From positions 124,001 through 174,809 of the forward strand of contig QPGO01000156.1 in NCBI GenBank assembly GCA_008632985.1: a stretch of DNA of 50,809 nt, given 5' to 3'. The stretch is from Psammoneis japonica. Lineage: Eukaryota. Shown here piece after piece: positions 4,281-32,780 of this stretch. A program made the position numbers and the translations under genes. The notes beneath the pieces are model-generated. The model saw only the letters and a list, made by a program, of their open reading frames with translations, was not told the DNA's origin and did no database searches. The first letter of the stretch is position 1. Each line of letters opens with the position of its first letter.

Positions 4281-4289
4281 GCTGTCGCA

Positions 4290-6477: not shown

Positions 6478-6949
6478 TCTTTGGCCTTCTTCAGCAATGC
6501 TCTTGCTGTGTTGTCGATGGCCGAGGTTGTTTCATGGCTGCAGCAGGACGGAAAGCTGGGAGCATCGTCAGAAGGCAATGGATTCTAATCAATGATGACA
6601 TTCCATCTTTGTGCCCTGTGGGCATTCAGTTTGGTGCTTGGGGATCGTACGAGATCAGCTTGGTCGTGGTTCAGTGCAAAGGAGGTGTGTCTTTTCTGCG
6701 CAGTTCTACGTGAATCCCGTGTGGACAGACCGTGACTCCAATGCGCTGCTGCATGTGCTGCACGGCACTGTGCATGCCGGCACTGTTGCTGCACAAGCAG
6801 GGCCCACCGGTGTGACAGAGCCCTCTCTACTCTAGAGAGATGACGAAGCAAAATGTCCGTACACTCGCGGCCCACCCTTTTTCTCTCCATCCCCAAGCGC
6901 ACTCCACGCAACCCTTCCACCACACATTGTCTCCTGACCCACCTCTTCC

Positions 6950-8950: not shown

Positions 8951-8954
8951 AAAG

Positions 8955-9288
8955 ATGATGAAATGATTACAGATCAGTTGGGAGTTGCAGATTCGGGCAT
9001 CGAAGCATCGCCACGTTTGTTGTTGTGCGCAATTCGATGACAGACTTGTACAGTCGAATTTGGTGCGTTTGTGAGCTAATATACGCAAGCAATCTAGGAT
9101 TGATACCGGAACATACGTTTGTTACGGGTCCTGATTGCTTTGCTGGTTTGTGCACGAGATGCATTGACGCTGAGGCCACAAGAATTGAAGATAAGGCCAA
9201 GATCCTGCAAGTTTTGCTTAATTTTCATAGTTACCAGGAAATCGACGATTTCATTGATCAGTTTCGAGCCCAGGAAGCACCTGACTAG
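8955..9288 (+). pseudogene. 5'-truncated, frameshifted remnant of a 'RLWCVYE'-motif (HET/TIR-like) family gene
   Basis: Reads ITDQLG..EASP, then after a frame change FVVVRN..DLYSRIWCVCEL..CIDAEAT..DKAKIL. The 5' part is replaced by the degenerate block. Confidence 0.4.
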
Positions 9289-9422: not shown

Positions 9423-11909
9423 TTAGGTTGGCCGGTCCAGCCACTTGCAGGGCCTCGAACGCATTATCGAGCCTGTCGTCGTATGAGACATGCCACAGGA
9501 TGAATTGTACCCCAACAGAAGACCCCACGTGCCAAAGCCACCAATGTTGTGACTGAGACATCGACTCTCTCCGAGGAGATACAGGTCGACGAAGATCGAA
9601 TAGTATTCTGATGGATGTCGACTAGTAGCATTGATTGCTCTGTCAATGTGAAGCGGTTCCTCGTCGTGGATCAGGCCCACAATTTTCCTCGACTTTTCTT
9701 TTGCATACTTTTGAACGACTTGGACTGCATATTTAGAGTCCGATGCAAAGTAGATAGGTGCGCCTGGACGCAATTGAGAAGCGCAATTGACCGCATTGAT
9801 GGCAAGTTCAGACGTTTCTTTTTCTGGCCGACTCTTTCGTCCATAGGTTGCACGGAGGTGCGCTGCTGCGTACTCTCCAGGCTTCAGTCCCAGATCCTTC
9901 ATGTTTTTTGATATCACCTTTGCCAAGGAGGGCGACGGGGTAAAGATGGAGTGAAACATTTCATGATAAAAGCCATCGTGTGTTGTGTTGGTCCACGTTT
10001 CATAGTACGTAGAGCCACCACCGGTGCTTTGGACTCGCAGACGCACAATTGTATCATCAAAGCCATCCAACACTCTATCGATCCGGCGGAGATCCATAAG
10101 CTTCTTCTCATCTTTTAGTTTGGATTCCATCCATGAAGGCAATGTCCAATTAAGCCCTCCAGGAGGAGGGACCAAGAATTCTTCTAACCGACAAGGCTTG
10201 TCCCAATAAATGAGGAGGATTCTGTTGGTTCGGTTCGCCAGGTAGAGGATGGCTGGTAAAGGCTTGAGTCGATCTGCCGTACCACCACACTTGTCATCCT
10301 CAAGTGTGCACACCATGATGAGAAACTTTTTAGACCTCCAATTTGTTTCTGACAAGTCCTCACGCTCGATTGCGTGCCATCGAAAGTACTCCTCCAGCCA
10401 CGTTGGTAGAGTAGAGGACGTCGTTCGTCTGGAGTACAGTTTGACCGCTTTGCTTTTGTTCTCGTTTTTCTTCAGAACAATTCCCATCGGCTGTTCAAAC
10501 TTCACGGGCTTGTACGCATAACTCGGTTTCGGCTCACCGTCAGTCCAATCGCACCCAATAAGCGAGTGCCGTGCGTCACCCGTAACATATCGCATTCCGC
10601 AGGATGAATTGCTACTCATCATCAAGCCCCAGTTCCCAAACCCGCCCACATTGTAGGATACACAATTGCTAAAACCAATAAGGTACAAGTCTCGAAATGT
10701 GGCATAATATTCTGACGGATGGCGATCCCTCCAGTTCTCCGCTTTCTCCAGATGTAGCGGACTCTCGTCGTCGTGTAAACTGACGATTTTTCTCTTATTT
10801 GCAGTGGCAAACGCCTGAGTGAATTTTACGGCATCGCTCGAATCCGTAGCAAAGTAGATTGGACTGCCAGGGCTGAGCTTGGACGCGCAGTTGAGCGCAT
10901 TGATTGCCATTTTCTGAATATCATCAAGGGGTCGAAACTTTATCCCATACAAGGCACGCAAATGCGCCGCAGCGTACTGCCCAGGATTCAAGCCGAGTGA
11001 CTTCATGTTGTGTTGAATCATTGCTCCAATGGGTGGGACGGGAGAAAAAAAGACTCTCCACAAGTCATGGTAGACTGCAACAAAGGTTGTTTCGTTCGTA
11101 CGCTCGTCAAACCATGTTGAACCAGCATTATAAGCCTGATAGCGCATCAATGCCACTGCTGAGTTTGATTCGGCAAGTCTCATGCCTAGTGGAATACCCG
11201 GTGCATAAGGTCTACGAGGCAGTTGAGGTTCAAGCCATGCAGGAACCCGCCAGTCAACGCCACCTATCGGTGGTAGTAAGAAATTCTCAAGCTTACACGG
11301 TCGTTCCCATCGAATCAGGAGAATACGATTAGTGTAATTTGCCAACATCGTCATGGTTGGTATGGGTTTGAGTCTGTCAGCAGTACCTCCACAGTGCCCA
11401 TCTTCCTCTAAGCATTGCATGATTAAAAATCGTTTCTTTTTCCAGTTCTTATCGCTGAGTTCTGCCATTTGTTCTCTATGCCATTTCAGGTAATCCTTCA
11501 TCCACTGAGGAATCGTTGTTGAGTTATCCCACAAGTTAACCGATTTGTTTTCCCATTTTGTATACAAAATTGAAGTGTCTGCATTATCAAACGCTGTTAT
11601 ACGTTTCGACTTTTGCACAAGTGATTGCCCAGCTTGAAAGCTCTGTAAGCGATCCGCAACCATTTGTGACTGTGACGGGTAAAACGAACTCAAGCTGTGC
11701 ACCGCGTGCATTCCAATAATTATACCCAACTGCACAACCATCAGGAAGATTAGAAACAGTTTGCAGCATCCCATTCGACGCTGCGTCTCATTCTTGTAGA
11801 CTCCGTTCATGCTGCCGACGTTCCCAAGCCCGTTTGTGTTTGCACCGCTGTTTTTCCCCCTCGGTATTATCTTTGTCTCTAACGATTTTGATGATTTCAG
11901 CCACTTCAT
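9423..11909 (-). CDS. Type II membrane protein with two tandem fucosyltransferase-like domains, paralog B
   Basis: 828-aa intact ORF, colinear with 29..2503 and with the same duplicated motifs. Confidence 0.8.
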   Translation of the reverse strand: MKWLKSSKSLETKIIPRGKNSGANTNGLGNVGSMNGVYKNETQRRMGCCKLFLIFLMVVQLGIIIGMHAVHSLSSFYPSQSQMVADRLQSFQAGQSLVQKSKRITAFDNADTSILYTKWENKSVNLWDNSTTIPQWMKDYLKWHREQMAELSDKNWKKKRFLIMQCLEEDGHCGGTADRLKPIPTMTMLANYTNRILLIRWERPCKLENFLLPPIGGVDWRVPAWLEPQLPRRPYAPGIPLGMRLAESNSAVALMRYQAYNAGSTWFDERTNETTFVAVYHDLWRVFFSPVPPIGAMIQHNMKSLGLNPGQYAAAHLRALYGIKFRPLDDIQKMAINALNCASKLSPGSPIYFATDSSDAVKFTQAFATANKRKIVSLHDDESPLHLEKAENWRDRHPSEYYATFRDLYLIGFSNCVSYNVGGFGNWGLMMSSNSSCGMRYVTGDARHSLIGCDWTDGEPKPSYAYKPVKFEQPMGIVLKKNENKSKAVKLYSRRTTSSTLPTWLEEYFRWHAIEREDLSETNWRSKKFLIMVCTLEDDKCGGTADRLKPLPAILYLANRTNRILLIYWDKPCRLEEFLVPPPGGLNWTLPSWMESKLKDEKKLMDLRRIDRVLDGFDDTIVRLRVQSTGGGSTYYETWTNTTHDGFYHEMFHSIFTPSPSLAKVISKNMKDLGLKPGEYAAAHLRATYGRKSRPEKETSELAINAVNCASQLRPGAPIYFASDSKYAVQVVQKYAKEKSRKIVGLIHDEEPLHIDRAINATSRHPSEYYSIFVDLYLLGESRCLSHNIGGFGTWGLLLGYNSSCGMSHTTTGSIMRSRPCKWLDRPT

Positions 11910-12429
11910 ATTTACTCCTTTGAAGAAACGTGCTCTTGCTCTTTGGGCGCGGGTTGGTTTGTGGTTGTCTTCTCTACCGGTGGATGCCGTTGCTCACTAC
12001 GACGGCAATAGTCATTGTCGCCGAAATAATCTCGAATGAGAAATTTGGAAGGCGTTCGCCAAGCGAGCGAGTGACAGACGGTGAACAATCGAACTGATCA
12101 ATTCGCGTGCGCTCAATCCATCGTTGCGCGCGTTCAACGGATTGAGGTCCAGATTAGAATTCTTGTAGGTTCCTACATACGAAGCTTTCCTGTAGTTTCT
12201 GTACTGGAGCTTTTCGTATTCAACGCACCCGTCAAATTTCGAAAATTTGCTTCCAACGCCGTTTCAGTTCCAAAACGCTGACATGAAATTCAAAAGAACA
12301 ATCCACAAAGTAGACAAAGTGGCTGCTACAAAGCTCAGTTAAACCACTATACCATCCTCATCCTTCATTCATATCCTTTAGAAACGGAGAAAGTGTCGAA
12401 ATATCTCGAAAGTACCTTACCCTACCGCC

Positions 12430-14198: not shown

Positions 14199-14819
14199 TC
14201 AATTTCCATTCATGTCGGCATCGCTGTCACTCGCATTATCGCTATCGGTGTTGTACGAGTTTCGGCCAACTTCACACCCTGGAGCCAGATTACGGATTGG
14301 ACGATGACAGAAGCAACCAGGACATTCACAGTAGGTACACACTGTCTCTGTGCATAAGAAAGCAATCAATCCTTTGCCAACGGTTTGAAAACAAACATCG
14401 CAATAACATTCCGAACCCACCGCCACCGTCACTTTCTCGAGGTTATGACCGTCCGGACATTTTGGCGTATGTTCTTCAAGCAAATGTTCCTGCAGAAGCC
14501 TTCTTTTATCTTGCCATTCGCAGCCAATAAATTCAAAAAAGCAGGGAATCTCGAGCTCTGTGCATTTTCTCTCGTGTTCGGCGCCCACCTTATGAGCCCG
14601 GAGGCAGTCCGCGCACGTAATTTCAAGCTCATTGGCGAGCCTCTGCATTGGCTGGTTTGCTCGAAACGAAAACTGCAGGCTTCGGCACTGGGGACAAGCG
14701 GAAATGTCTTTTCCGTCGACGCATTCTTTGCAAGCCAAGGCTCCGCAGCAAGAAGTGCTTTGGCAATCCTTCACGATCTCGTGACAAATGAGGCACTGAA
14801 AATCTTCTGCTCCTGGCAT
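14199..14819 (-). CDS. RING finger + TRAF/SIAH-type zinc finger + Cys-rich domain protein (putative E3 ligase)
   Basis: CLICHE..CCGALACKEC..CPQCR RING; C.F..IGCEW..LQEHL zinc finger; CPDGH..CDVC..C..C..CPGC. The 5' end may extend further. Confidence 0.75.
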   Translation of the reverse strand: MPGAEDFQCLICHEIVKDCQSTSCCGALACKECVDGKDISACPQCRSLQFSFRANQPMQRLANELEITCADCLRAHKVGAEHERKCTELEIPCFFEFIGCEWQDKRRLLQEHLLEEHTPKCPDGHNLEKVTVAVGSECYCDVCFQTVGKGLIAFLCTETVCTYCECPGCFCHRPIRNLAPGCEVGRNSYNTDSDNASDSDADMNGN

Positions 14820-15139
14820 TTTCTGTGAGGTTCGGACGACACGTTATGGAAACAAGAGTAGCAAAGCGTAGTGTCCTTTGGGTAACCCTGGCGGCGGTGT
14901 GAAGGTTGAGAGTGGTGGCCGTCAACTGCGACAGCCTGGGGCGTCGTGTCATGGCAGCGCAAATGCAGGATCGGATTTGAATTCTCAGATCGATCCTACA
15001 ACAGACGGACCACAGCACGCCCACCAAGTGCCGGTAAGTGGCAATGCCTGCAGGGCCCCACTCCACTAGCTAGAGTAGAGAGTGGCATCCGGCAAAGGCA
15101 GTGATTGGCGACTTAGCCCTCTGCTCTAGCAGCAGTGTA

Positions 15140-16759
15140 TTTGCAATGCGCCCACAGCTAGCTGGAGGGCCCCAAGCTTTAACTGCAATGGACCTGCACT
15201 GCTGCCAACTGCAAACAGAATTGGGTGGATCCTCTCAACCCACTCAGCAAGAAGCTTGGTGTCTTGTCAACAACATCTTCCCCATGCATGTGGCACTGCC
15301 AAGACCCAAAATCATCATTGAAGACCAGAGTGCAAAGATTGCAGTCCCTTTTGCTGGGCGCCACACCATGTGCCTGACAATCCACAACAAACCAGGCATC
15401 TGCCACTGCTTCCTTGCATTTGCCAAGAAGAACAACACGATGGGGAGATGTTCCTTCCAGCCTTTTCCATCACAAAGCAGCTCCAAAGCCCCCTTCCCTC
15501 CACTCTTGATGCACAAATCCAGCTCTCCAGTGTCAATTTTGCCAACAACCATCACCTCAGTGCCAAGCTCTGGAATGATTCAATGCCATGCATGCAGCAG
15601 AGATGCAACTGCATTGTCATGGAAAACAAAAGCTGCTGGAATGCAGCCTCTTTCGGACTTTGCAATGCACCATCCTTTGTTGGGCTTGCCACTTGGAGTC
15701 GACAAGCCAAAATGTTTTCAGCAGCTCAAACAATTGGATTGTCTGACAATTTGAGGAACATCTGTGCTGGATGAGGCTTGGGAGAATGTCTTGTTTTGCA
15801 GCAGAATCTCTGCAACGGGACTTGTGAATCGGGCCAATTCTGTCAAGATCCCAGCATTGACCAGCTCAGTGACAATGTCACCAGGTTGGCTCAGACCCTC
15901 AATGATTCTGAGCAGAGATGAGATTTTTTTGTCCAAGATGAAAGGAAAAAACAGCAACAACGGCAGCAGCAACAACAACAACAACACAACATCATCTGAG
16001 GAAAATGCAAAGACATGGTCATGAATGGCAAGAATGCCAACAACGGCACAAAGATGCTTTGACACAAATCAGAGCAGTTGTTGTGACCTTTCTCTCTTGC
16101 ACAATTTCTGCCACATTTTCAACAGCAACATCACACCCAGGCGCACTTCTTTTGCAGCACCATCATGCCGCTTTTCTTTCAAAAAGTTGACAAGAATCTT
16201 GCAGATGAGCACAGCTTGCTGTGTGTTGGGAGCCATCACAAGTGAGTGCCACTTTCACACACCAACACTGTCCAAAACATGTCTTCTGACAACAACATTT
16301 TTCTGGTGAAATTTCTCTTTTCAGATGCGCAGCTGACAGGGACACACCAAAAATTCACCACCTTCACCATGTCAGCACTGACCAGCAAGGCAAGCACTTG
16401 GCATTCTCTGGGAACACCCTGCTGAGCTTTTTCCTTTGTTTTGGTTGGCTGCTGCAGCAGCATCAGCAGTTGGAGCAAGCTCTTTCTTTGGGGTGTTTCT
16501 CACCATGCCTTTCTTGATGGCAGCAGAGGTGGTGCACCTGGCTCTGACAGTCAAGCACCTCACTTCAAACAACCCCTCACACAAAGCAGAGGTGCAATCT
16601 CATGGAGTGCAGCAGACATTTGCCACACGACATTTGAGGAGCCAAGTGTGAGCATCTGCAGGAGCTTTGGAGAAGGTGGCCACCAATCCATGCAACTTCA
16701 GTTGTTGCAGCAGTGTCTCACAAGAAGTGTGGCTTGTCTCAAACAGCAATGCTGGTGGA
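15140..16759. other. Hypermutated degenerate block (left part of the host sequence of the LTR insertion)
   Basis: TA- and CG-depleted. The target-site duplication shows it continues at 20813. Confidence 0.55.
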
Positions 16760-16764
16760 ATGTG

Positions 16765-17040
16765 TGACAGAAACTGAAGGCAAATGGCAAGAATTCAAAC
16801 AACAACTCCTCACTGCTGTCTAAACAGCAGATGAGTCTCCGCTCAGAGACCGTTGCAGGAGCCGAAAGACGTGCAAGTCGGTGTGATCGGGCTACTGTTG
16901 TTATTCTTGTGAGCCTTGTGGCTCGAAAGCAAACTGCATCGCGCGCGAACGCGCGGAACTAAAGCACACAAAACTGTGCGCGGTAAACTAAACAGCGCGC
17001 GATGTTTCGCGCGCACCTAAATCCTGTTCAAATCCTGTCA
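16765..17040 (-). repeat. 3' LTR
   Basis: Matches 20532..20807 with 15 substitutions by manual alignment. Confidence 0.95.
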
Positions 17041-17106
17041 CTCCCCAGTTTGCTTGAGGAGCCACAGAAACAGATTCGACTTCGGATTGACTAAAGAACT
17101 TTGGGG

Positions 17107-19575
17107 TCAAAGCACCAAAACATGAGGAGACAAGAAAGGATCAAGATCCAAGAGCAACGTTGCATTCTCCAAGTGGGTCATCTTGAGATGAGCTGCGTCT
17201 CCCCAATTGCAGATGCCGTTGTGCTTTTCAAAGCTCAAGGCACACTTGGGATCTTGTGGGATTCCACATCCGCACTTGCAATGGAAGGAGCAAAGCTTGG
17301 TCTGGTTGACAATGTTGAACGGCGGGGCAACATTGCAGGTGGCATGGCATTTGCACGACTCGGGGAACAGAGCAAGCATGAGTTCAAAGGCACAAGCGGT
17401 GGACTTGTGTTCCACCAATCCGATTGCAAGCTCAGCTGCATCTCCTGAGAGACTGATCCAATTGGAGAAACGAGTCTCAAGGTGCAAGCCTTCGGGGATC
17501 GGATTGGAGCAAGACATCTTGTGGTGCAAGGCTGCAGGTGTCTGATTGGGGCAACCAGTCCCGTGCTGCAAGACTTCTGGGATCCAAAAGGACTTGCCAG
17601 TCTTGTGACACGAGTCTTCGGGGATCCAATCAGGAGGCCAAGTCTTGAGGTGCGAGACTTGGGGGATCCAATCAGGAGGCCGAGTCTCGTGACGCAAGAC
17701 TTGAGGGATCCAATCCGGAGGCCGAGTCTTGAGGCATGAGACGTGGAGGATCCAATTGGGAGGCCCGGTCTTGAGGCACGAGACGTGGAGAGTCCAGTTG
17801 GGAGGCCTGGTCTCAAGGCACGAGACTTGGGGCATCCGATCAGGAGGCCCAGTCTCGATGTACGACACTTGGGGCATCCAATCAGGAGGCCCAGTCTCGA
17901 GGCACGAGACTTGAGGCATCCAATCAGGAGGCCCAGTCTCGAGGTGCGAGACTTGGGACATCCAATCAGGAGACCTGGTCTCGAGGTACGAGACTTGGGG
18001 CATCCAATCAGGAGGCCTGGTCTCGAGGTACGAGACTTGCGGCATCCAATCAGGAGGCCTGGTCTCGAGGTACGAGACTTGAGGCATCCAATCAGGAGGC
18101 CCAGTCTCGAGGTGCGAGACTTGGGGCATCCAATCAGGAGGCCCAGTCTCGAGGTACGAGACTTGGGGCATCCAACCAGGAGGCCCAGTCTCGAGGTACG
18201 AGACTTGAGGCATCCAATCAGGAGGCCTAGTCTCGAGGTACGAGACTTGAGGCATCCAGTCAGGAGACCTGGTCTCGAGGTGCGAGACTTGGGGCATCCA
18301 ATCAGGAGGCCTGGTCTCGAGGTACGAGACTTGGGGCATCCAATCAGGAGGCCTAGTCTCGAGGTACGAGACTTGGGGCACAGGAGGCCTAGTCTCGAGG
18401 TGCGAGACTTGGGACATCCAATCAGGAGACCTGGTCTCGAGGTACGAGACTTGGGGCATCCAATCAGGAGGCCCAGTCTCGAGGCACGAGACTTGCGGCA
18501 TCCAATCAGGAGGCCCAGTCTCGAGGTACGAGACTTGGGGCATCCAATCAGGAGGCCCAGTCTCGAGGTACGAGACTTGGGGCATCCAATCAGGAGGCCC
18601 AGTCTCGAGGTGCGAGACTTGAGGCATCCAATCAGGAGGCCTGGTCTCGAGGTACGAGACTTGAGGCATCCAATCAGGAGGCCCAGTCTCGAGGTACGAG
18701 ACTTGAGGCATCCAATCAGGAGGCCTGGTCTCATGGTGTGATGCTTGGAGGATCCGAAGACAACGAAGCTGCTTGGATGTCCTGAACTCCCCATCTGATG
18801 AACCGGTTGAACTGTTGTGAACAGATTCAATGACGGGAAAAGGAGGCTCCCCATCAGGAGATGCGAGAAGCAAGTTGTCACCTCCATCACTTCCCAAACG
18901 AAGACTGTGAAGGGTGACAGCGACAGAAGTCGACACGTGGAGGTTGGCAGCACGTGGTTTGCGGGGTGCAAAGACTGCAGCTTTGGAAGCCATGGGTGGA
19001 GTGTCCCAACTGGTCTCAAAGTGCGGGCCTGTGCAAGGGCTGCAATCCTGCACTGGGCCGAGGTTGCTTGCAGGCGGGTTGGTCAAGACATGCGGGGCAC
19101 GACTGACACCACTTCTAGGAGACACCTGAGTGGCGGCACAGTGCAAGGCTGGTGTCAAAATGGCACTGGGTTCATCTGGTTTGGATGGCAAGGGACTCGG
19201 CACAGGTGCGGAGGGTGCTGCGCCAGTGGCTAGAGAGGTCAAGTAGTCCGGACCAAGGCGGCAGTTGCGAAATTCCTCGGGTGTGAGCAACTGGGGTTCA
19301 TTGGTCACATCATCACCGTTGCAAACTTTGACAAAGTAGAAGCTGATCAAAGCTGCTAGGAGGTTTCTGTGGGTCCGTGGCAAAGGCACTACATTGGCGC
19401 CGTCTCTGCAAGTGAGGGCGTCAATTTGGGTGGGTAAGAACGTGAACAATTCCTCGCACGATTCAATCCCGTTGATGGACAGGGCAGAACGAAGAGGGCT
19501 GTCATCGTCTTGATTGAGCACAGTGCCCAGAATGCATTTGAAGCTTTCGGTTTGTTGCTGTCGCGTGAGAACCAT
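17107..19575 (-). CDS. Gag-like N-terminus fused to ~31 14-aa repeats and a short pol remnant (probably defective)
   Basis: N-terminus FKCILGTVLNQDDDSPLRSAL..GI resembles CoDi gag starts. (ETxPPDWMPQVSYL)n follows. C-terminal KCGCGIPQD..AL.F...NG...WGDA resembles the Copia integrase-RT linker. Confidence 0.5.
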   Translation of the reverse strand: MVLTRQQQTESFKCILGTVLNQDDDSPLRSALSINGIESCEELFTFLPTQIDALTCRDGANVVPLPRTHRNLLAALISFYFVKVCNGDDVTNEPQLLTPEEFRNCRLGPDYLTSLATGAAPSAPVPSPLPSKPDEPSAILTPALHCAATQVSPRSGVSRAPHVLTNPPASNLGPVQDCSPCTGPHFETSWDTPPMASKAAVFAPRKPRAANLHVSTSVAVTLHSLRLGSDGGDNLLLASPDGEPPFPVIESVHNSSTGSSDGEFRTSKQLRCLRILQASHHETRPPDWMPQVSYLETGPPDWMPQVSYLETRPPDWMPQVSHLETGPPDWMPQVSYLETGPPDWMPQVSYLETGPPDWMPQVSCLETGPPDWMPQVSYLETRSPDWMSQVSHLETRPPVPQVSYLETRPPDWMPQVSYLETRPPDWMPQVSHLETRSPDWMPQVSYLETRPPDWMPQVSYLETGPPGWMPQVSYLETGPPDWMPQVSHLETGPPDWMPQVSYLETRPPDWMPQVSYLETRPPDWMPQVSYLETRSPDWMSQVSHLETGPPDWMPQVSCLETGPPDWMPQVSYIETGPPDRMPQVSCLETRPPNWTLHVSCLKTGPPNWILHVSCLKTRPPDWIPQVLRHETRPPDWIPQVSHLKTWPPDWIPEDSCHKTGKSFWIPEVLQHGTGCPNQTPAALHHKMSCSNPIPEGLHLETRFSNWISLSGDAAELAIGLVEHKSTACAFELMLALFPESCKCHATCNVAPPFNIVNQTKLCSFHCKCGCGIPQDPKCALSFEKHNGICNWGDAAHLKMTHLENATLLLDLDPFLSPHVLVL
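17450..18732. repeat. 42-bp tandem array
   Basis: Unit GAGGTACGAGACTTGGGGCATCCAATCAGGAGGCCYRGTCTC. 22 near-identical units span 17815-18732 (one is 36 bp), and ~9 progressively degenerate units lie to the left. Confidence 0.95.
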
Positions 19576-20531
19576 GACGGAGGACGGTGCAGTGGAAACA
19601 AAAGACAGGAACCAATCTAGAGCGTGATCTTGACTCGGAGTTTTGACTTGGAACTTGGCTTGAAAAAGACTTGACTTGAGCTAGACTTGACTTGAAATCT
19701 TGGACTGTCTTAAAATCAGAAGTCGCCGGGTTGTGCCATCCCGTTCGTTGTCAAGTGCCAAACTTCCCATCCGGTCCGTAGAGTTGTGCTGGCACGTCCG
19801 AACCCACAGCCAGTGGCGCTTTGGGTTGCTTGCAAGCGGAGTGGCGGGTTGCAAACCCCTGCAGGCAAGCTGACTGGAGGTGGACAAGACCCCTGAACCA
19901 TTCCCATTTTGTGTCGGTTGGATTTCCCGATCAGGCTGGCCAGTTGACGCAGGCGTTGGGCGCTGTGGATGAACGAACAAACGCGGGAAAACACCCTCGC
20001 CCCAACGCAGGCTGCAATCACGGCTGCTTGCTCTCACAGTCGTCCTCGTGGACCCAGTGGAACTGCAGAGCACCGGCAGTCCGGGGCAGATCAGGTGCAA
20101 TGGACTCGGTGTGCTTGCAGAGTGGCAGCAAAACTGCAGTCCGAAGAGTGGGTGCAGGTTCTTGGCCGTGAAGATGTGCACATGTGTGTGTGTCTTCAGC
20201 GACAAAGATCCTTGAACATGCAGGGTTCTTGACCGTCAACCGATGAACAGGTGTGTCAAGTGATGAGGATCAAGGACAGACTAGGATGTGACTGTTGAAT
20301 GCATGTCTTCAGCGATCAAAGGTGGCACAATCAATCCAGATGTCCAGCAGCAAGGAGACTTGACGGTGACGTTAACTTCCTGCCGATGCCCTGGCATTGA
20401 ATGCACGCAGACTTGCCAATGCATGTAGAACACACACGGAGGTCCACGTGGAATTGAAGTGGCGTCGTTGGCAAATCAACGGCGACGATGGCGGTTGCTC
20501 AATGGGTTGACAATGAGCAAGACTGTTGATC

Positions 20532-20807
20532 TGACAGAAATTGAAGGCAAATGGCAAGAATTCAAACAACAACTCCTTGCTGCTGTCTAAACAGCAGATG
20601 AGTCTCCGCTCAGAGACCGTTGCAGGAGCCGAAAGACGTGTAAGTCGGCACAATCGGGCTACTGTCATTGTTCTTGTGAGCCTTGTGGCTCGAAAGCAAA
20701 CTACATCGCGCGCGAACGCGCGGAACTAAAGCACACAAAACTGTGCGCGGTAAACTAAACAGCGCGCGACATTTCGCGCGCACCCAAATCCTGTTCAAAT
20801 CCTGTCA
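20532..20807 (-). repeat. 5' LTR
   Basis: Direct repeat of 16765..17040, followed by TSD ATGTG. Confidence 0.95.
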
Positions 20808-20812
20808 ATGTG

Positions 20813-22100
20813 GCTCCAGCACAAAATCTGCCAAAGTTTTCAAGATGCTGTGCAGCTCAGTGACAGCAGCTGTGCAAGAGTGGCTGTGGTGTGGTGCTGC
20901 TGTGGGTGATGGACAATCAAGGTCAACTGCAGAGCATCATGTGGGTGCCACCACCCACGTGCAATGATGCTGCAAAACAACATGCCAAATGACAGAGGAC
21001 AGTGACAGGCAACAGGAGTGTTGTTCAAAGATTTTCAGCTGTGCAGAGCTTTGTTTGGCTTCTCACTTGTTGTCTGAATTGGTCATCTCACTGTGACAGA
21101 CCACCATCTTGCATGGATGAATGCCAGACAAAGTGGGGTGTGCAAAAACAATTTTCCCACCCAAGCCACACAACCCCTGAAAAATCCTGAGGAAATCATG
21201 CCAACTTGTTGGTGTGCTTTTCACTTTGTCGTGTTTTTCATTTGTTGAGTTCTGTTGCATCTGTTCATTGAGTTCTGTTGCATCCCTTCCTTTCCATGTG
21301 TTTTCTGTGTCAAGTTGGTGCAACGATTTCATGCCCCTTGCCGGAAAATGCCACAATGATTGGCACTGAAAGCAAACTTTGCTCAGAAGCAGATGGCATC
21401 ACAACAAACATGCTTTGCAGATTGCACCGTCTGATTGTCTTTGCAGTGAAGTGTCAAATTGCATGGGAGAAGCATGGTGGATTCTTCTGTGCACCCCATT
21501 TTTCAGGTTTTTCAATTCTGTCATCTTGGGCCAAGCACAGATTTAAAGAGCCTGTGCAGAGCAAAGGGGAGCAGCAGATGGAGGCACGGAAGCAGCTGCA
21601 TCGATGGCAGAATGGAGTGGGTGCCAGGAGCAGGATGTGGGTTGCTTGGTTGAAGGATGTGGCAAGGAAGAGGCAGGAAGAGAAGAGATGAATCGAAGGG
21701 CATGCAGAGAAAGGTGAAGGGCAATGTTGCAGCCAAGCACTTTGGTGGCCCGTTGAGAAGGAGAAGCGGTGCGGAAGGTGTTGCCGAAGCACTCAGCAGA
21801 CAGTCGACACCATGCACCATCAGCAGATGGGAGAAGAGCAGAGGGAGATGACAAGGCACAAAGGAAGGCAGAGTGGGAAGCATCAGAATGGCGAAGATCG
21901 GAAGAGGATGACCAGGGAGGCTTGGGCTGAGAACGGGCGGATGAATGCGCCGAGCGAAAAAGGAGGCGATGAGCAAAGAATCTGAGGCCACCAAGGTGAT
22001 TGACGCGGCAAAAGGAAGAAGAAAGATGCCATCACTGTTGAGCAAAGCAACAATGAGGGATCCATTGGTGGAGGGGGGGGGGGGGGGCAAGGAACTTCAA
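20813..22100. other. Hypermutated degenerate block (right part of the host sequence), ending in a purine-rich tract and a G15 run
   Basis: TA-depleted throughout. CG reappears after ~21750. G run at 22073-22087. Confidence 0.55.
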
Positions 22101-22489
22101 ACTCGCGCTCGAGTGGTGTGCCCCAGTTAAGACAGGAGGAGAAGAAGGGGTGGGCAGACCAGGAGGAGGGCGAGAGGGAGCTTGGGGTGTGGTGACGTCA
22201 ACTGCGACGTGGCGATGGCGGGAGGGAGCGGAAAGGGAGGCAGGAGGAGAGACAGAAATGCCGACATCGGCGGGGCGTAGGAGTGGGCGAGAAGGCAGTA
22301 AATTCGTCGGCTGAAGGTGCACGTCTTCACGTGCAAAACGGCGCCGGGCGACAAGGAACCCCGTCAGTCGTGTCACGAATGCAATCATTCCTCATTCCTT
22401 ACTTAGTCTACCCTGAAACGTGCATCAAGCGTTCGGTCCCGAGTCCCGACGGCCTTGGTTGGCGGCTTCTCAAAAAAGTCAAGCACAAC

Positions 22490-23236
22490 ATGATCACGTC
22501 AACCGAACAAATGAAGAACCTGAGCAGTCAGCAGAAAGACCCAACGGCAGATCATCCACGAGAAGCCGCAGCAGAGGCACTTGGCGATCGATTGGGCGGT
22601 GCTCGCCCAGTCTACCTGACTGACAATGGTCGATCGTGGTACATTCTCGTCAAAAGGTACAAACCGACTCCAGACAGAGAGACATTCTTGGCCGAATGGG
22701 ACTTGCATCCAGAAGACTTTCATGCGCTCCAACTCTTTGGAAAAACGGTCTATGAAAGTCGATGGTCACAGTCGTGGGGAATGAGTTACGCCTACTCTGG
22801 AAGCGTATCGCCTGCAAGAGACTACAAGAAAGACGCCAAGGGGAAAATGGTACAGAGTCTCATCAACGAAGTGAATGAGCTTGCGTCGGGAATATATCCT
22901 CACAAAGCTCCATACAATGGATGTCTACAGAATTGGTACCTGCCAGAGCATAAGATTGGCCTACATTCAGACGACGAAACAGCAATGAAGGTTGGCTTCC
23001 CTGTTTTCAGCCTCAGCTGGGGAGGCCCCCGTCGCTTCATCTTTCGGGAGAAAGGCAATCGCAGAAATATGCATGAAATCCTTCTTGAGGATGGCGATCT
23101 GCTTGTCATGGGCGGCACATGCCAACAGACGCACAAGCATGAGGTTCCCAAAGTCAGAGTTACAATGGACCCACTCGCGGCAGAAAGGATTAATTGGACC
23201 ATCCGTGCATTTATAGAAGATGGTAGCCATGTCTAA
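22490..23236 (+). CDS. AlkB-family 2OG-Fe(II) dioxygenase (ALKBH2/3-like)
   Basis: YAYSG, YNGCLQNWY, HSDDE (HxD), SLSWGGPRRF, LEDGDLLVMGG, HKHEVPK and RINWTIR. ATG at 22490 assumed; the frame is open from 22283. Confidence 0.88.
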   Translation: MITSTEQMKNLSSQQKDPTADHPREAAAEALGDRLGGARPVYLTDNGRSWYILVKRYKPTPDRETFLAEWDLHPEDFHALQLFGKTVYESRWSQSWGMSYAYSGSVSPARDYKKDAKGKMVQSLINEVNELASGIYPHKAPYNGCLQNWYLPEHKIGLHSDDETAMKVGFPVFSLSWGGPRRFIFREKGNRRNMHEILLEDGDLLVMGGTCQQTHKHEVPKVRVTMDPLAAERINWTIRAFIEDGSHV

Positions 23237-23362
23237 ACGAAGAATTATTGGCGATAAGGTAGATCTATGTTGCTTGACGCGGTATAGTAATCGCCGTTGT
23301 AGATGGACAGTGCATCCGATTATTTTTGCTTGTTGCTTGAATAGTTGCAGTTGATGCTTTCC

Positions 23363-23916
23363 TCAACAATGATGTTGACCTGCATGACAGCCAGGCGCAA
23401 CATCACGAAGTGCACGATGGCACAAGCATCCAGGACCCTGAGAATAATTGCAGTCTCGACAGAGACAAGCAACACCTCCAGGAGACACTAGTCCCTTGCA
23501 AACATCGCAAAACCAGGCCCGTCGTTTAGTCACTATTGCGGCCGTTTGGACATTTCGGTGAATGTTTCTCCACTTGGTGCATATCTGGAGCCTTTCTGGG
23601 ACCCTTCCATTCACACGCAACAAAATTAAATAGCAGGAAACAGGTTCTGGTGGTTCGCTCCGTGCTTATGAATTCGTCGGCAAGCATCACAGGTTACATC
23701 CAAATCATTGGTGAGCCTCTACATTGGTTTGTTGTGTCGGAAGCAACAGCTCGGATTTCGACGCTGCATACACGCCGTGAGAGCTTGATCTTGTACTCAT
23801 GCACGGCATAAGTCAAGTCGCGATGGTTCTAATTGCGACTGGCTCCATTAATTGGCACGTCGCATCCAACTTGCCACCGGCAGCTACTAGGAAACCGCCA
23901 TTGGGCAATTCGCAAA
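23363..23916 (-). pseudogene. Chimeric remnant: WD40-gene fragment joined to a decayed RING/TRAF-gene copy
   Basis: 23834-23916 matches 33133-33211 of the UBL-WD40 gene. 23363-23800 resembles 14199..14819 (CDVC..CLCRDC..PGCLCHRALRDVAPGC). Confidence 0.7.
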
Positions 23917-24175
23917 GTGCAGCTAACAGCGCCAAGAATAAGCAACAGAACTACAGCATTTCGAGTCTAAGCTCTCTTTGGTATTTCTTATGTACTGTAC
24001 AGCATTTCTTATGCGACCGATAGTGGGCTGTCAAGAAAGAGATTTTCTCTTGCATTGCCTTATACAATCGTTGTGTGGATATTCTGCGTATGGGGTTCGT
24101 CCAAAGCTTTCGCAAAGCAACAGAATTTTCAATTTCTTATCACTGCGGTTCGTCGCGCGTTGTAGGGACTTGTTC

Positions 24176-25937
24176 CTATTCTTCCTGCGACTTATGGCAG
24201 CCAGCAATTGCATCGTCTTTAATGTCAAGTGAGCTCTCCTGAAACGTCTCTTCTGAAGCAAGTTCACAACATGGCTCTTCTTCTTTCTGGCTTCCACAAG
24301 CAGTTGTGCCTTTCCTGTCTACAGCATTCTGTTTATTATCACCTTTTTCGACGTCAGTAAGTGAGGAGCTCTTTCGAAATTTCTCCCCAAAAACAAGAAT
24401 AGTGGAAAGTCTCGGCATTGAAGACGTCGATGTTTCTAATGAGTCAGATCGATAGAACATTCCGAAAACAGAGCTGGGAATAGCTGCATCCACATTTCTT
24501 TGGTCCTGTGCACAGCGGCACGTGATAAAGTCCCTTGTCACACGGCGGACTTCAGGTTTCGTTAGTGCCATTGACACTGACGCGAGTGTCTGCAAACAAG
24601 ATAAGTACCTGAAACGGAAGGAAACAATAGGTGAAATATCTGACACTATACAACCGCTCATAATTACCTCTGGGTATAAGCAGAATGCATGGTGATCGCG
24701 TTTTACAAACAACGTACCAAGGGATGTAATGCAAAGGCAGCCCGTCCCAACTGACATTTCCTGCTTCGACGACGATTACAATGCCGCTAGGAAGATTGAA
24801 GAGATAAAATGTAACGACGATTCTCAGAAAGTATAGTGCCATCACTCTTGTCCGTCTAGAAATTGAGAGCAATTTGTCCAGCCAAATACGGACACAGATG
24901 TATCCCACGTATAGAAAAGGAATCGCCGCAATTGCAACCCACAGAAGCCCGAGAATCTTTTGAAAGTCTTCGCGAAACCTTAGGCGATCAAAGATGACAA
25001 CGGAAGCAATCCCTATCAGGGATGACAAGAAATAGACAATTGCTGTTTCCATGCACACACGTCTAATGGAGGGTGGGGCGACTCGTCTCGCATTCTTTGT
25101 CGCGCGGAGAATCCGATATACTTGAAAGGCCACAACCGAATTAAGCCAAAAATTTGATGCAGCGTAGAAGTAGCCAATCAAAACCAAAAGGTTCGGTGGT
25201 GTGTGCTTTCCGCTGATGGCTCTCGATCCTAGTGCAACGCCTAAGGCAGCGTGAGCGGCATCTGGAATTGTCAAGGCAACAAGGTATAGATTGAACGGGT
25301 TTCTCCTCGCTTTTCGAGTCACTAGAATTGCCAACATGAGAACAAGAGCGAAGCATAAAGCCAGACACCCGAGAAACACCCTCATCGCTTCTGCTGTGTA
25401 AAGATTCCTCCGGAGTGGGGGAGTGCCGCTGTCTGTCTTGCAGCACACGTAGTTGTAAAACCAACGAGAGTAATGTCGAAACCTGGCAGTGGTATGTCGG
25501 GGAAAGCGATAGTCGTCACCACCACACGTCATGGGTTCATAGGGGGCGTCTGCCAAGCAATCTGTCCCACCTCGGCCATTAGGACTCGTGCATACTTGGT
25601 CCGTACATTCTTCCTGGGGAAGAGAGGAGTCTATGGATTCTGGAAGACAACATGCATACCATCCGTACGTGATGTTTGACACGGGTTCGTAGAGTGAGGC
25701 CATACTTGAAAGATCTTTGACTTCATAGCCGTCTACACACGATGGTTGCTTCCACATGAAGGATCAATCAATTGTGGCCCAGCAGTCTGTTCCTGGGGAA
25801 AAGCCGGGGCTGCGGCACTTGCTGTCGTCACACATCCCGTTAACATCTGTCTCTTGATTGGCCGCCGTGATGCCAACATGAAACCAAGCCAATGATGACA
25901 AGAGGGACAGTTTCAGAGCGATGCGCGTCTTCATCAT
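24176..25937 (-). CDS. GPCR-like multi-pass receptor with signal peptide and Cys-rich ectodomain; in-frame TGA at codon 58 (possible pseudogene)
   Basis: ATG at 25937 gives a signal peptide, with TGA at 25766-25764. Motifs PFNLYLVAL.IPD and NFWLNSVVAFQVY are present. A GT-AG intron at 24717..24609 restores W-YLSCLQTLAS..LTKPEVRR. Confidence 0.7.
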
Positions 25938-26299
25938 GGTCAATCACAAGCATAGCAATTAGCCGTGCTACGGTAATATATTCGGAAGAAGAACGACAGG
26001 GGAGGTAACAAAAAAGGAAAGGAATGCACCATTGTTGAAGCGACGAAAAGATGAGAAGATATGCACCGGACAGACATATAAGACCTTCGATACCTTATAT
26101 ATGAATACAGAGGTCATCAACGACATGTCTTTTCTACACGAAATGCTACGTATGAGTGGAAAGAGCCTCAGTATGCTCGTCGCTCGTGCAACGCACGATT
26201 TCCCGCGTTAATTACTATTGTACTTTGACATCAAATTTCTTCCGTTGAGATGATGAACGTTAAGTGCAGCATGTCGGCGATTTCATTCTCGGGGCGGGT

Positions 26300-29150
26300 G
26301 GTACGACAGTCCTTTGAACACTTCCACTGCGTCACTTCACCGTTGGCCGTGTTGGACGACACCAACAATGGCGACAATGGCGGTTCCGATTCGACGCCCA
26401 CGAAACCTCCGGCTAAGAGAGCAAGAGTGGAGACTCAAGCCCTTACCCTCCACACCAAGAAGGAACAAAAGCCAAAGAGATTGAGCGGGAAGACGTGCTG
26501 CAATTGCACCTTGGGGTCAACCTGCCAAACACGTGGCTGCTCATGCTGCAAACATGATCGACCATGCACCTCTTGCGTCTGCTTCCACAAGTGTAAGAAC
26601 AAGGAAGGGCTCAAAACTTGCGGCATAAGTAACAGGAATTTGGACAAGAAACAACGGAAAACCTTGACCTCCCCGGAAACCAGTCCACTTCAGCCGAAAA
26701 TCTGTCAACTCATCTCCGACACCCCTGATGACACCAACAAACAGAACAAACCCAAGGCCAACACCGAAGCCAACAAAGAAAACACCACGCCCAATAATCA
26801 AGTGAAGGACACTGATGAGGGTAGAGATGGTGAGGAGGTCAACACTGCCTCAAGGGGAAGAGAGCAGCCGGAAGACAAGGAGAGCTCGGAGGGAGCAAAA
26901 ATTCCGTCACATGACGACCCCGATGACACACCCAACGACTTCAATTTGGACGCGGAACGAATCACATTCGAGGCACACGGCGAGACCCATCACCTCAATG
27001 ATGGCTCCCATCTGGATGGTGGAATGTCGGACGACAAAATTTGGCAAGAGCATTGGCGCCGGCTGGTGCCCCATCCATCACAACGATGCGACGTTCCGAA
27101 CGGTTCCATTGGAAAACGGTTCATCAGAACGTCAGCAGAGTTGCCGTGTGGAGTCAAGACGCGAAAGTGGAACTCGGAGAGGTTCAAAGTGTTCCAGGCA
27201 GCAATTTTACAGTGGGGCCGCAACGTAAAACGAGCCAAGGACATTAGAACCCTGCTCACCAGGCGTGTGGATGACTGGGATGCAGACAAGCACAAGATGT
27301 TGGTCCAAGCGACCGAACTGCCACTTGAGAGCAATCTGAAGACCGTTCAGAAGGAGGAGACACCAGAGCAGTGCACCAAGACATTCAATGGAATGGTGCT
27401 GCGAGCCTGTGGACCAGGCCTTCTCCCACTGGTCCACAAGCTGAATGACATCTGTCAAGATGCTTTCACACCATGGCACGCTGACGACTCTGCTGCAGCC
27501 GGGAAATTCAATGTCCTTCGGGAATTTTTCTTGACTCTTCGAGTTGAAGGACCCAAGCATGGTTGCTGCCCTGCCGCTGATGACAAGAACATCCCAGCAG
27601 TCCCAGAACACAACCTGGAACGTGCCAGGGCGTGCTTTGGAGACCTCGGCTTCACTGTCTGCTCAGGCAGCCACTGCCTCGGAGGCTTCGTCGGAGAGAC
27701 GGACGCACGCAACCGATGGCCAGCGGAGAAAGCTGAGTCGTAGACCTCGGTCGTCCAAGGACTCGCAAATGTCGCGATTCATCACCCGCAGACCGCCTGC
27801 GCCGGTCTTCAAAAGTCCCCACAACACCAGTGGCAATGTGTCCAACGTGTGGTGAAGGACTGTGGCAAATCCTTTGCGGAAGTGGAGAACGCGATCCATT
27901 GCCAATTCCTTCCAGCACCAATTGGTGAGACCTTGGCTGACGACGATCCGAGACCAGCCCTGTCTGCCCTCCCAATCAAATTTGCAGGACTGTCCATCCC
28001 TCATCCAACAGAGTCTGCATCCCAAAACTGTGAAGCAAGCACTCTCACGTGCTCTCATGTGATGGACTCACTCTGCGGCCACTCAGATTTCTCTTCAGCA
28101 GTCCACAAGGACACCATGCGCGAAGTGATGTGAGAAGTGGCCAACAGGAAAGCCAAGATGCACGAGGAGAAACTCAAGACAATCCTCCGGACTCTAACTG
28201 ACCTAAAAGCCAGAGCCATCAAGTGCAGCACCAGCACTGGAGCATGGCTGTTGGTGCACCCATCGATCATAAATGGCACGGAACTCTCTTGTCTAGAATT
28301 CCGTGACGCGCTCTACCTGCGACATGGCTGCACTCCCCCCAACCTCCTGGAGCACTGCGATGGATGCGCCTGCAAATTATCCATCGCCCATGCCCTGCAG
28401 TGCAAAAAGGGCGGCCTGGTCATCTCACGACACGATGATGTGCGTGATGACCTCGGTGACCTAATTGGAACGGCCTTCAAGCCCTCCTGCATACGCAACA
28501 AACCCCTCATTAACCCCATTGGTTGCACCTCAGGAAGCCCAGGCTCCTCCAACAACTCCCAAGGCAACACAAACTCCAACATGTCCAAGGATGGCGACCG
28601 CGGAGATCTTTCATCCAAAGGATTTTGGGACAAAAGGACAGACACCATCATGGATGTTTGCATTCCGGACACGGATGCGAAGTCACACCTGTCCAAGACA
28701 CCGGAAGAAGTTCTGGAACAACACGAACAAGAGAAAAAGCGTGAGCACCTCAAGCCCTGTCTTGAGCAATGCTGCCACTTCACTCCCTTCGCAGTGTCAT
28801 GTGACGGACTGTTTGGCAAGGAAGCCAAAGCAGTGCTGTGCAGAATCTCTGCAAAACTGGCTGAGAAATGGCAAAAGCCACATTCAGAGGCATGCGGCTG
28901 TGTTAATGCGAGAATGAGCATCACTTTGGTGCAGGCAACTCACCGCTGCCTCAGGGGATCACGCACCCCTTTGTCTCAGATCAGCTCAAGACGTCCTCAA
29001 TGGGAGGATGGAGCTGGCCTGTCCCTTTGCAAACACCAAGTGACCCCACTTGGGCCAGACACTCATGCGGACCGATTGCCAACATGCCACACACAGAGAC
29101 CATTGACACCACGCCGAGATGACAACAAAAACCCAGCAACACACTGATGA
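26300..29150 (+). mobile_element. CRE-like non-LTR retrotransposon (Cys-rich N-terminus, RT, CCHC finger, restriction-like endonuclease); internally deleted and mutated
   Basis: WHADD (=WYADD) at 27474-27488; EFRDALYLR, CDGC..HALQCKKGG..RHD, RGDL..KGFW, DVCIPDTDA, EKKREH, FTPFAVSCDG..GKEA and HRCLRGSR. Most of the RT core is missing near 27400, and there are stops. Ends approximate. Confidence 0.85.
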
Positions 29151-29249
29151 CGGCGCCAGAATCGATTCGGATCCCACGCGCACAGCCCACGAAAACTGCG
29201 TGCGACAACCACCCCTTGTTTGCATGACTGCATTAACCACACAATGTCC

Positions 29250-32200: not shown

Positions 32201-32780
32201 AGAGCACCAGCCACAGCAACAGCTCAAGTGCAGCACAAGAACACTTTCAATGAAAAGTTGGGGCCAGTTGAGTCTCTGACACTTGGGCTGGCTGTGAGGG
32301 GCCAAGTGAGCAACCTTGTTGATGCAGACACCAATTGTGAGTGTGTGAATGCTTTGCCAGTGACATTGCATGATTGACACTCACAGACCAATGAGTTTCA
32401 TTTTCTCATCTGAAAGGTCATTTCCAGGGCCAGAACATGGCACAGCCTCTGCTTTTCTCCCTTGCAAGGCTGCTTTTGCAAATTTGCCAATGCTCCTCCT
32501 GGACTTTGTCATTTTCTTGGCAAGGCTCACATGTCCAATTTGCACCATGCATTCATGATCTGGGGGGCTTCCTGGAGTGTGCCCAGTTGGCAGAGGTCAA
32601 GGAAGGGGATCGTCTCTGTCGCTGTTCTGTTGCTGTTCTCCATCCGTGCATGGGTTCTGCTTGCTTTTGTGAACACCAACGCTGTCCATCTGTCCCACCA
32701 AACAGCATCGCTGACAAAAGAGAGCAGGTGGCAGAGGCAACCTGACAAAAGAGAGCAGGTGGCAGAGGCAACCTGCAAGA
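29250..32780. repeat. Hypermutated block with internal direct duplications
   Basis: A ~190-bp tandem pair (30300-30455 / 30491-30645) and a longer degenerate duplication (~30800-31670 vs ~32125-32725). TA and CG are nearly absent. Confidence 0.7.
32711..32772 (+). repeat. Perfect 31-bp tandem duplication
   Basis: CTGACAAAAGAGAGCAGGTGGCAGAGGCAAC x2. Confidence 0.95.

Follow-up and report, generated by a model that had tools for sequence, protein, structure and literature searches.

Organization of the LTR element

The DNA analysed here is a 50,809-nt stretch of contig QPGO01000156.1 from Psammoneis japonica (the window), and it contains at 16765-20807 an element with two long terminal repeats (LTRs) that differ almost exclusively at pyrimidine–purine (YR) dinucleotides. 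In this element and in about half of the window, the dinucleotide TpA has been replaced by TpG or CpA, and we attribute the pattern to a DNA-level process that probably acts in place on particular compartments. The element and a further LTR of its family are located as follows (no strand is assigned unless one is given; both LTRs of the element were delimited by a repeat search and MAFFT alignment):

16760-16764, left target-site duplication ATGTG, read directly and the same as 20808-20812
16765-17040, left LTR, 276 nt, with the termini TGACAG...CTGTCA
17041-20531, probably minus strand (minus-strand frames and a purine-rich tract at 17041), internal region of a non-autonomous LTR element
17610-18740, tandem array of 42-nt units (about 27) within the element, in which two columns alternate among TA, TG and CA
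20532-20807, right LTR, 276 nt
20808-20812, right target-site duplication ATGTG, read directly
50751-50809, start of a third LTR of the element's family, truncated by the end of the window (59 nt compared)

The direct LTRs, their TG...CA ends and the 5-bp target-site duplication are the end features of an LTR retrotransposon, and because the 5-bp ATGTG is present on both sides, 16765-17040 and 20532-20807 are the LTRs of a single insertion. The long open frames on the minus strand, together with the purine-rich tract abutting 17041, suggest a minus orientation; a short minus-strand purine run adjoins 17041, and a tRNA-complementary primer-binding site was not obvious by eye, no formal search having been made. 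None of the open reading frames (ORFs) of the element interior matched a Pfam family, gag and pol included, and a protein search with the internal ORF at 19681-20235 (minus strand) returned zero relatives. Therefore, we treat the element as a non-autonomous, or heavily mutated, LTR element of about 4 kb. Rfam matched nothing in the window. The left LTR has an observed/expected ratio (o/e) of 0.43 for TA and 1.24 for CG; the corresponding values in the element interior (about 3.5 kb) are 0.03-0.15 and 0.44-0.68. The third LTR covers LTR positions 1-59 only, over which it is identical to the right LTR (59/59) and matches the left LTR at 56 of 59 positions, with the states of the right LTR at positions 10 and 47-48. 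In metagenome contigs, 31 loci shared a conserved LTR 21-mer, all of them by the 21-mer alone, and no LTR relatives were found among them.

Differences between the sister LTRs

The two LTRs align without gaps over 276 nt and differ at 15 positions, all of which are transitions. The initial annotation had counted 15 differences by manual alignment, 14 of them in YR dinucleotides, and had sorted them into five TG-versus-CA sites and four TA-versus-TG/CA sites; the alignment reproduced this count position by position. Specifically, (i) TG in one LTR faces CA in the other at LTR positions 47-48, 118-119, 120-121, 135-136, and 239-240 (5 dinucleotides, 10 bases); (ii) TA in one LTR faces CA or TG in the other at positions 110, 139, 172, and 254; (iii) the sole difference outside a YR step is C/T at position 10; and (iv) all 22 CpGs are identical between the LTRs, including those of the CGCGCGCGAACGCGCGG run that had been described as intact in both. 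Sites with CG in one LTR and TG or CA in the other, which are the signature of methylated-CpG decay, are absent from the pair.

The concentration of differences in YR steps is unlikely to be due to chance. Fourteen of the 15 fall within the 100 of 276 positions that belong to TA, TG or CA steps (binomial tail 6.7e-6; Fisher 3.8e-6), and the alignment contains 6 pairs of adjacent differences (permutation p ~1e-5, 200,000 trials). The 44 CpG positions carry none of the 15 differences, which is weak evidence when taken alone (p=0.07). Read most simply, all nine variable YR sites carried TA when the element inserted, in which case 14 of the 15 differences are A>G/T>C changes. Positions 118-121 would then have read TATA and, together with the flanking bases, might have looked like a promoter TATA element. 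The divergence between the LTRs is 5.4% overall (15/276) versus 0.57% outside the TA/TG/CA positions (1/176). Thus, dating from naive LTR divergence gives an age about tenfold too old here, which supports the earlier claim of an overestimate. Per base, TA loss is roughly estimated from the LTR pair to run at about 160 times background, with a very wide range owing to the single background difference; a second rough estimate, from the LTR pair and the paralogue triple described below, places it at least 6-13 times faster than CpG loss.

TpA-depleted compartments

The initial annotation framed the pattern as a feature of the LTRs. It is indeed seen there but extends to whole compartments. The dinucleotide o/e values are bimodal along the window, about half of which is depleted, and the depleted windows are contiguous and form five compartments with edges that are sharp at 250-bp resolution (no strand assigned):

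3001-9000, depleted compartment with the pseudogene-like paralogue B (4325-6480)
15001-22000, depleted compartment with the LTR element, TpA and CpG low
27001-33000, depleted compartment, part repeated (27.5-29.5 kb) and part single-copy (29137-32740)
35001-36000, depleted compartment
45001-50750, depleted compartment up to the third LTR, TA o/e 0.07 and CG o/e 0.15

The depleted DNA amounts to 25.8 kb and has 169 TA; its o/e per kb is 0.02-0.34 for TA (mostly <0.2), 0.00-0.84 for CpG, and 1.17-2.00 for CA+TG. The normal remainder, in which recognisable genes are located, amounts to 25.0 kb and has 839 TA, with o/e values of 0.39-0.63, 0.75-1.24, and about 1.1-1.4, respectively. Across 50 one-kb windows, TA correlates negatively with CA+TG (r = -0.86) and positively with CG (r = +0.83). 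The stretch 15180-16821 is free of TA over 1,641 bp. A further 14 TA-free gaps of 542-1,039 bp all lie inside depleted compartments or start at the edge of one (2820-3543).

Tetranucleotides were counted in four non-genic depleted stretches (14900-16759, 20813-22190, 29200-32900, and 45000-50750; 12.7 kb). TGCA is the most over-represented tetranucleotide there (4.07-fold), GCA/TGC are over-represented 2.4-fold, GTAC is absent, and TATA stands at 0.02. The survival of TAA/TTA is about 3 times that of TAT or TAC, a hint that the process may respond to more of the surrounding sequence.

The affected DNA includes the LTR element family and a pseudogene copy. Among the ORFs of at least 90 aa in the depleted compartments, 0 of 111 matched a Pfam family (118 in total, the 7 array ORFs being excluded). 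The depleted DNA also differs in how far it has decayed: most TA is gone and most CpG kept in the young element and in copy B, and both are lost in the oldest stretches. CpG is thus depleted in the same compartments as TA, later than TA. The earlier statement that CpG is untouched accordingly holds within the LTR pair but not elsewhere in the compartments, where CpG decays more slowly. As a separate observation, the 51 kb contain 57 stop-to-stop frames of at least 150 aa, many of which overlap on opposite strands. Because TA is rare, stop-free frames are abundant, and gene callers would over-predict in depleted DNA.

Direction of change in three paralogues

Three members of a protein family of 825-856 aa, which gave only weak DUF5395/DUF6731 matches below the Pfam cut-offs, are located in the left part of the window and allow the changes to be polarised:

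87-2506 (frame 29-2506), minus strand, paralogue A, intact 825-aa frame, normal composition, polarity reference
4325-6480, paralogue B, broken frame, in a depleted compartment
9495-11900 (frame 9423-11993), minus strand, paralogue C, intact 856-aa frame, normal composition, outgroup

The pairwise identities (A-B 73%, A-C 68%, B-C 67%) give the topology ((A,B),C). At the 39 sites at which both A and C have TA, copy B has CA at 15, TG at 15, TA at 1, and another dinucleotide at 8, whereas the reverse is rare: TA appears in B at 3 of the 68 sites with TG in A and C, and is outside B's six commonest outcomes at the 93 sites with CA in A and C. At the 35 sites with CG in A and C, copy B has CG at 19, TG at 9, CA at 4, and another state at 3. 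In lineage B, A>G occurred at 21 of 52 TpA sites (40%), compared with 10 of 116 ApA sites (9%) and 7 of 88 GpA sites (8%); the same 52 TpA sites show A>T at 5 and A>C at 1, and C>T occurred at 7 of 42 CpG sites; a CpA class that pooled A after C with C before A was left out of these counts. Counted pairwise, TA>CA/TG and the reverse change stand at 39:4 for A versus B, 43:2 for C versus B, and 18:15 for A versus C; the asymmetry therefore arises only when one copy lies in a depleted compartment. In a second pair of normal and depleted copies (14436-14823 versus 35362-35746), the ratio is 4:1 for TA and 11:1 for CG. Thus, TpA is the source, as the initial annotation had proposed, TpG and CpA are its products in equal numbers, and CpG decays too, more slowly. 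In a strand-run test, the CA and TG outcomes in copy B were not significantly clustered (12 runs in 30, P=0.10; relaxed set of 79, P=0.87), and there is accordingly no evidence of one-strand processive bursts in that copy.

Tandem array and other repeats

The array within the element was scored over 23 units from 17822, the last of which is degenerate. Columns 29-30 of the 42-nt unit are CA in 11 units, TG in 8, and TA in 3, and columns 40-41 are TA in 14, TG in 6, and CA in 2, with the 1 degenerate unit making up the total in each case. The remaining four CA/TG steps and the CpG of the unit are almost invariant, and CG stands at the two variable columns in none of the regular units. A higher-order duplicate within the array (17925-18224 versus 18381-18680) shows 3 TG-versus-CA flips, 4 TA-versus-CA/TG sites, and 3 other differences. 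In contigs covering other repeats, the changes include CA>TG (26451-26452 and 27322-27323) and GTG>ACA (27146-27148). Among nine older duplicate pairs in the window, CA/TG is the commonest adjacent double difference (44), followed by AC/GT (21).

Variants of the element family in sequencing contigs

Four sequencing runs, all of one sample, contain the stretch, and their contigs were mapped to window positions 18800-38799. Unique DNA is covered at about 61-69x by contigs in which pieces of 3.6-5.1 kb show 0-3 differences from the window; as the pieces from the deep run agree to this degree, an assembly error is not the source of the pattern. The single-copy depleted stretch 29137-32740, at a depth of 69-102, is covered by one unbroken contig of 3,604 nt with 2 differences. 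Over the element, 5,745 deep-run contigs reach a summed depth of up to about 225,000 (which is not a copy number), versus about 61 in the unique flanks, so that the family is very abundant. Across the family, the boundaries of the LTR are confirmed by loose contig ends at 20532 and 20807.

Family states were read at the best 40 of 495 variant places, none of which lies in the LTRs; the refuting condition set by the initial annotation was therefore applied in the adjoining interior, to the 27 places best supported there. At 18 of these 27, contigs of abundant variants have TA where the window copy has CA or TG, and the share of TA at the 18 places in the deep run ranges from 0.05 to 0.94. The opposite arrangement, TA in the window copy and CA or TG elsewhere, was found at none of the variant places listed. 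The window copy has CA or TG where 0.89-1.00 of the family depth has CG at 19806, 20293, 20405, and 20418, with a possible fifth case at 20056. The interior variants mostly reflect contigs of two very small runs, in which we presume the commonest variants of the family to be represented. Transitions make up 433 of the 492 variable places in the deep run.

Two further observations concern the surroundings of the element. In the unique right flank, the sole two base differences between the window and the deep-run contig are 20958 CG>TG and 21325 CG>CA, both at full share; they could be allelic or strain-level, in which case the run is not simply the consensus of the assembly. A second repeated stretch, at 26137-29471, has a summed depth of 370-1,700 versus about 61 in unique DNA and CA/TG flips of its own, and contains no recognisable protein domain.

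A proposed compartment-restricted process at TpA

We propose, with a probability of roughly three in four, that a DNA-level process converting TpA to TpG or CpA acts in place on particular compartments. Each conversion would be an A:T>G:C change at the A of either strand. The targets would be transposon copies, tandem repeats, a pseudogene copy, and old non-genic DNA, the genes and their immediate surroundings being spared, and the process would be far faster than background substitution and much faster than CpG decay in the same DNA. According to this proposal, the element of about 4 kb entered a compartment of the depleted type with identical LTRs, each of which would then have lost most of its mutable TpA steps independently after insertion; a TA converted on opposite strands in the two LTRs would yield a TG-versus-CA flip, and a TA converted in one LTR only would yield TA versus TG/CA. 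The pattern itself, its direction, its limitation to compartments, and its order relative to CpG loss are established directly by the comparisons above. They support the view of the initial annotation that TpA was lost at the DNA level, after insertion, and on both strands, as sister LTRs, array units, the pseudogene copy, and single-copy DNA are all affected and CA and TG outcomes are equal in number.

The process would presumably be enzymatic and targeted, and by analogy with the chlorarachniophyte Bigelowiella natans the leading candidate would be a DNA adenine deaminase of the ADAT2/TadA kind, with targeting that may follow silencing or DNA methylation. Oxidised or otherwise modified thymine, or biased mismatch repair, is a possible alternative mechanism. 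Very-short-patch repair of T:G mismatches explains the scarcity of CTAG in Escherichia coli, and a bias in T:G-mismatch repair was considered as a mechanism that does not involve a deaminase.

Several points weigh against this interpretation. A homogeneous model of conversion, for which the maximum-likelihood estimate is p=0.59 per TA per LTR, fits the LTR pair badly: 5 TA shared by both LTRs (CTAAA three times, GTAAA, and CTACT), 4 one-sided sites, and 5 flips were observed, and by our own arithmetic about 2.7, 8.2, and 3.1, respectively, are expected at p=0.6. Heterogeneity among the LTR TAs fits better and must therefore be added to the model. TA at insertion at the nine LTR sites is inferred, the family states having been read in the adjoining interior. 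In the array, the two oldest, degenerate edge units have CG at both variable columns, and three short, older duplicate pairs (30.3-32.7 kb) show flips together with CG-versus-TG/CA sites and no TA-versus-TG/CA sites, so that some flips in old DNA may have originated from CpG. The four runs, being of one sample and possibly the assembly's own data, are not independent of it. A mutation-accumulation study of the diatom Phaeodactylum (PMC6604790) includes no TpA effect among the mutational biases it describes.

Alternative explanations

Differences between the LTRs could have been imported, by ectopic gene conversion or by intermolecular plus-strand transfer between co-packaged RNAs, with the TpA process still having shaped the family. 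The extreme abundance of the family, its polymorphism at such sites (5,745 contigs; TA shares of 0.05-0.94 at 18 sites), the agreement of the third LTR with the right LTR at positions 10 and 47-48, and the deficit of one-sided sites relative to the simple in-place model would all suit such an origin. We nevertheless regard it as unlikely: the LTR differences are scattered over positions 10-254 and form no single tract, conversion in place is directly shown for copy B and for single-copy DNA, and the interior of the element is TA-depleted to an equal degree. Somewhat less probable still is methylated-CpG decay, in which the flip sites would have been CpG at insertion, 5-methylcytosine would have been deaminated on different strands, and TA would represent double deamination. 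CpG is clearly lost in the depleted compartments, transposons of diatoms are CpG-methylated by DNMT5a in the account of PMC9998398, the older duplicates show CG facing TG/CA beside flips, the two array edge units have CG at the variable columns, and the window copy has CA or TG at the four interior places where nearly all family contigs have CG. In the LTR pair, however, this origin needs some 5-10 CpGs to have mutated in both LTRs while 22 others (44 copies) remained unchanged; moreover, TA is the majority state at array columns 40-41 (14/23), where no regular unit has CG, TA loss exceeds CpG loss in the polarised triple (38/39 versus 16/35), and the element has lost most TA and yet kept most CpG.

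A technical origin, through a modified TpA base in silenced DNA that is misread as TG or CA according to strand, or through variants introduced by repeat polishing, would produce just such a network of TA, TG and CA without CG; all four runs are from one sample and possibly the source of the assembly, and at some repeated places (27322-27323) the window's own variant is in no mapped contig. Such misreading should leave CA/TG bubbles and broken k-mer contigs, whereas the single-copy depleted stretch is one 3,604-nt contig at about 69x with 2 differences and pieces of 3.7-5.1 kb match the window with 0-3; at its one locus, copy B shows each conversion as a fixed single state, and gene-rich DNA in the same data has normal TA. 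An artefact is therefore very improbable. Scarcely credible is a CpA>TpA process on both strands of repeats, resembling repeat-induced point mutation (RIP) and perhaps carried out by a RID-related DNMT4, with TA as the derived state. The diatom DNMT4, described in PMC9998398 as related to fungal RID and as of unknown function, would provide an enzyme, and many family sites are indeed CA or TG here and TA in other copies, but the polarity is the opposite (30/39 TA>CA/TG versus 3/68 TG>TA), TA is scarce in repeats and non-genic DNA (o/e 0.02-0.2) and CA+TG there reaches values of up to 2.0, a combination that is the reverse of RIP indices, and C>T changes alone yield no TG-versus-CA flips from a non-CpG ancestor. 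The least plausible of the alternatives is ADAR-like A>I editing at UA of the element transcript before reverse transcription. The 5' U preference is typical of ADAR and is discussed in that connection in the main text of the B. natans preprint (10.64898/2026.01.13.699255); both LTRs are copied from one template, however, so that editing before insertion leaves them alike, and both strands changed equally (15 CA : 15 TG). Array units, the pseudogene, and the single-copy spacer, which are not retrotransposed, show the same pattern, and the initial annotation was right to set RNA editing aside.

Two further candidates were rejected. An origin of the flips in small inversions or template switching was dismissed by eye, as the flanks are not inverted repeats, and GC-biased gene conversion would favour all changes from weak to strong base pairs, at odds with changes that occur at TpA only and with a loss, not a gain, of CpG.

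Comparison with known systems

A full-text literature search returned a single direct precedent, the preprint of Mettrop et al. on B. natans (10.64898/2026.01.13.699255), and searches on diatoms combined with TpA, TpG/CpA, dinucleotides or repeat-induced point mutation returned no report of the process. As described in the main text of that preprint, two integrated viral regions of B. natans, followed in mutation-accumulation lines, have a mutation rate of about 6e-7 per site and generation, roughly 1000-fold above background, with activity in some lines only; 230 of the 231 mutations are A>G/T>C, all at TpA. The genome also contains clustered windows poor in TpA and rich in CpA+TpG that are enriched for reverse-transcriptase and DDE domains, and an ADAT2-like deaminase and a RIP-like defence were proposed. 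The words diatom, stramenopile and retrotransposon do not occur in that main text. The mutation-accumulation study of Phaeodactylum (PMC6604790) describes a GC>AT bias with mutable CG, CC and TG contexts.

The window resembles B. natans in that the changes are almost only A>G/T>C at TpA, with the products TpG and CpA according to strand, in that they are restricted to regions while the rest is ordinary, and in the long-term combination of low TpA and raised CpA+TpG in clustered windows. It differs in four respects: (i) B. natans is a rhizarian and its targets are integrated giant-virus and virophage DNA, whereas the present host is a stramenopile, probably a diatom; (ii) the DNA hit in the window comprises an LTR retrotransposon family, a tandem array, a pseudogene copy, and old spacer; (iii) the footprint is far deeper, with TA o/e values of 0.02-0.34 over about half of the 51-kb window, compared with 0.45 in the viral region; and (iv) TA depletion is accompanied here by CpG loss, and the process is read here from a sequence footprint.

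Like RIP in Neurospora and other fungi, the changes are dinucleotide-specific transitions made at the DNA level, on both strands and in place, on repeated or putatively selfish DNA, and they cause sister repeats to diverge faster than the clock and leave compositionally distinct compartments. Fungal RIP, by contrast, makes C>T changes at CpA and thereby raises TpA; in the window, TpA is lost and CpA/TpG increase, so that RIP in the fungal sense is not what is found, and a dependence on duplication is not apparent, as single-copy DNA is also depleted. Decay of methylated CpG likewise turns a self-complementary YR step into TG or CA, depending on the strand, and occurs in the same compartments, but does not explain the LTR pair, in which 0 of 22 CpGs differ, or the loss of TA. 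APOBEC (G>A) and ADAR (A>G) in animals provide parallels for deaminase-driven hypermutation of retroelements with a neighbour preference, a deaminase being suggested here by analogy; both act on cDNA or RNA, before integration and on one strand, whereas the present changes are post-integration, affect both strands, and include DNA that never passed through RNA. The feature is thus best filed as TpA hypermutation in a new lineage, with new targets (retrotransposons and whole silent compartments) and a much deeper footprint.

If this reading is correct, TpA-specific A:T>G:C hypermutation, so far described in a single 2026 chlorarachniophyte preprint, extends to a stramenopile, probably a diatom, the diatoms being major primary producers in the ocean; retrotransposons would be its targets here, and about half of the window's DNA would have been reshaped by it. 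LTR dating in such genomes would err by roughly a factor of ten if TA/TG/CA positions were left unmasked, and TA-free DNA would yield long spurious ORFs and hide degraded transposons from homology searches, so that gene and repeat annotation needs compartment-aware handling. The sharp compartments would also offer a direct handle on the enzyme and on the targeting signal. A bolder proposition, which we advance tentatively and hold to be slightly less probable than its negation, is that the window records an active, compartment-targeted DNA-editing defence directed at silenced or selfish DNA, in which the adenine of TpA is deaminated on both strands. Such a defence would be faster than 5-methylcytosine decay, would erase transposons within about 0.5% of ordinary-site divergence, and, being shared with B. 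natans across two distant lineages of the stramenopile–alveolate–rhizarian (SAR) group, would be an old and widespread "mirror-image RIP" of marine protists.

Genes in the window

The genes in the window encode an ankyrin protein, an AlkB-type 2-oxoglutarate (2OG) oxygenase, a WD40/ubiquitin protein, CAND1, and CAP, and have few introns. The named relatives of the CAP protein among its best 120 matches are all diatoms (41-49% identity), the top matches in that set reach 60-76% identity, and the host is probably a diatom. The gene for the AlkB-type 2OG-Fe(II) oxygenase (22196-23236, plus strand; PF13532, E=2.2e-24) starts within about 200 bp of the edge of the element's compartment. The product belongs to a class concerned with repair or modification of nucleic-acid bases, and the position of the gene near the edge is probably coincidental. 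The CAND1/TIP120 homologue (36637-40937, plus strand) is read in two frames that overlap at 39135-39189, which corresponds to a short intron or a frameshift.

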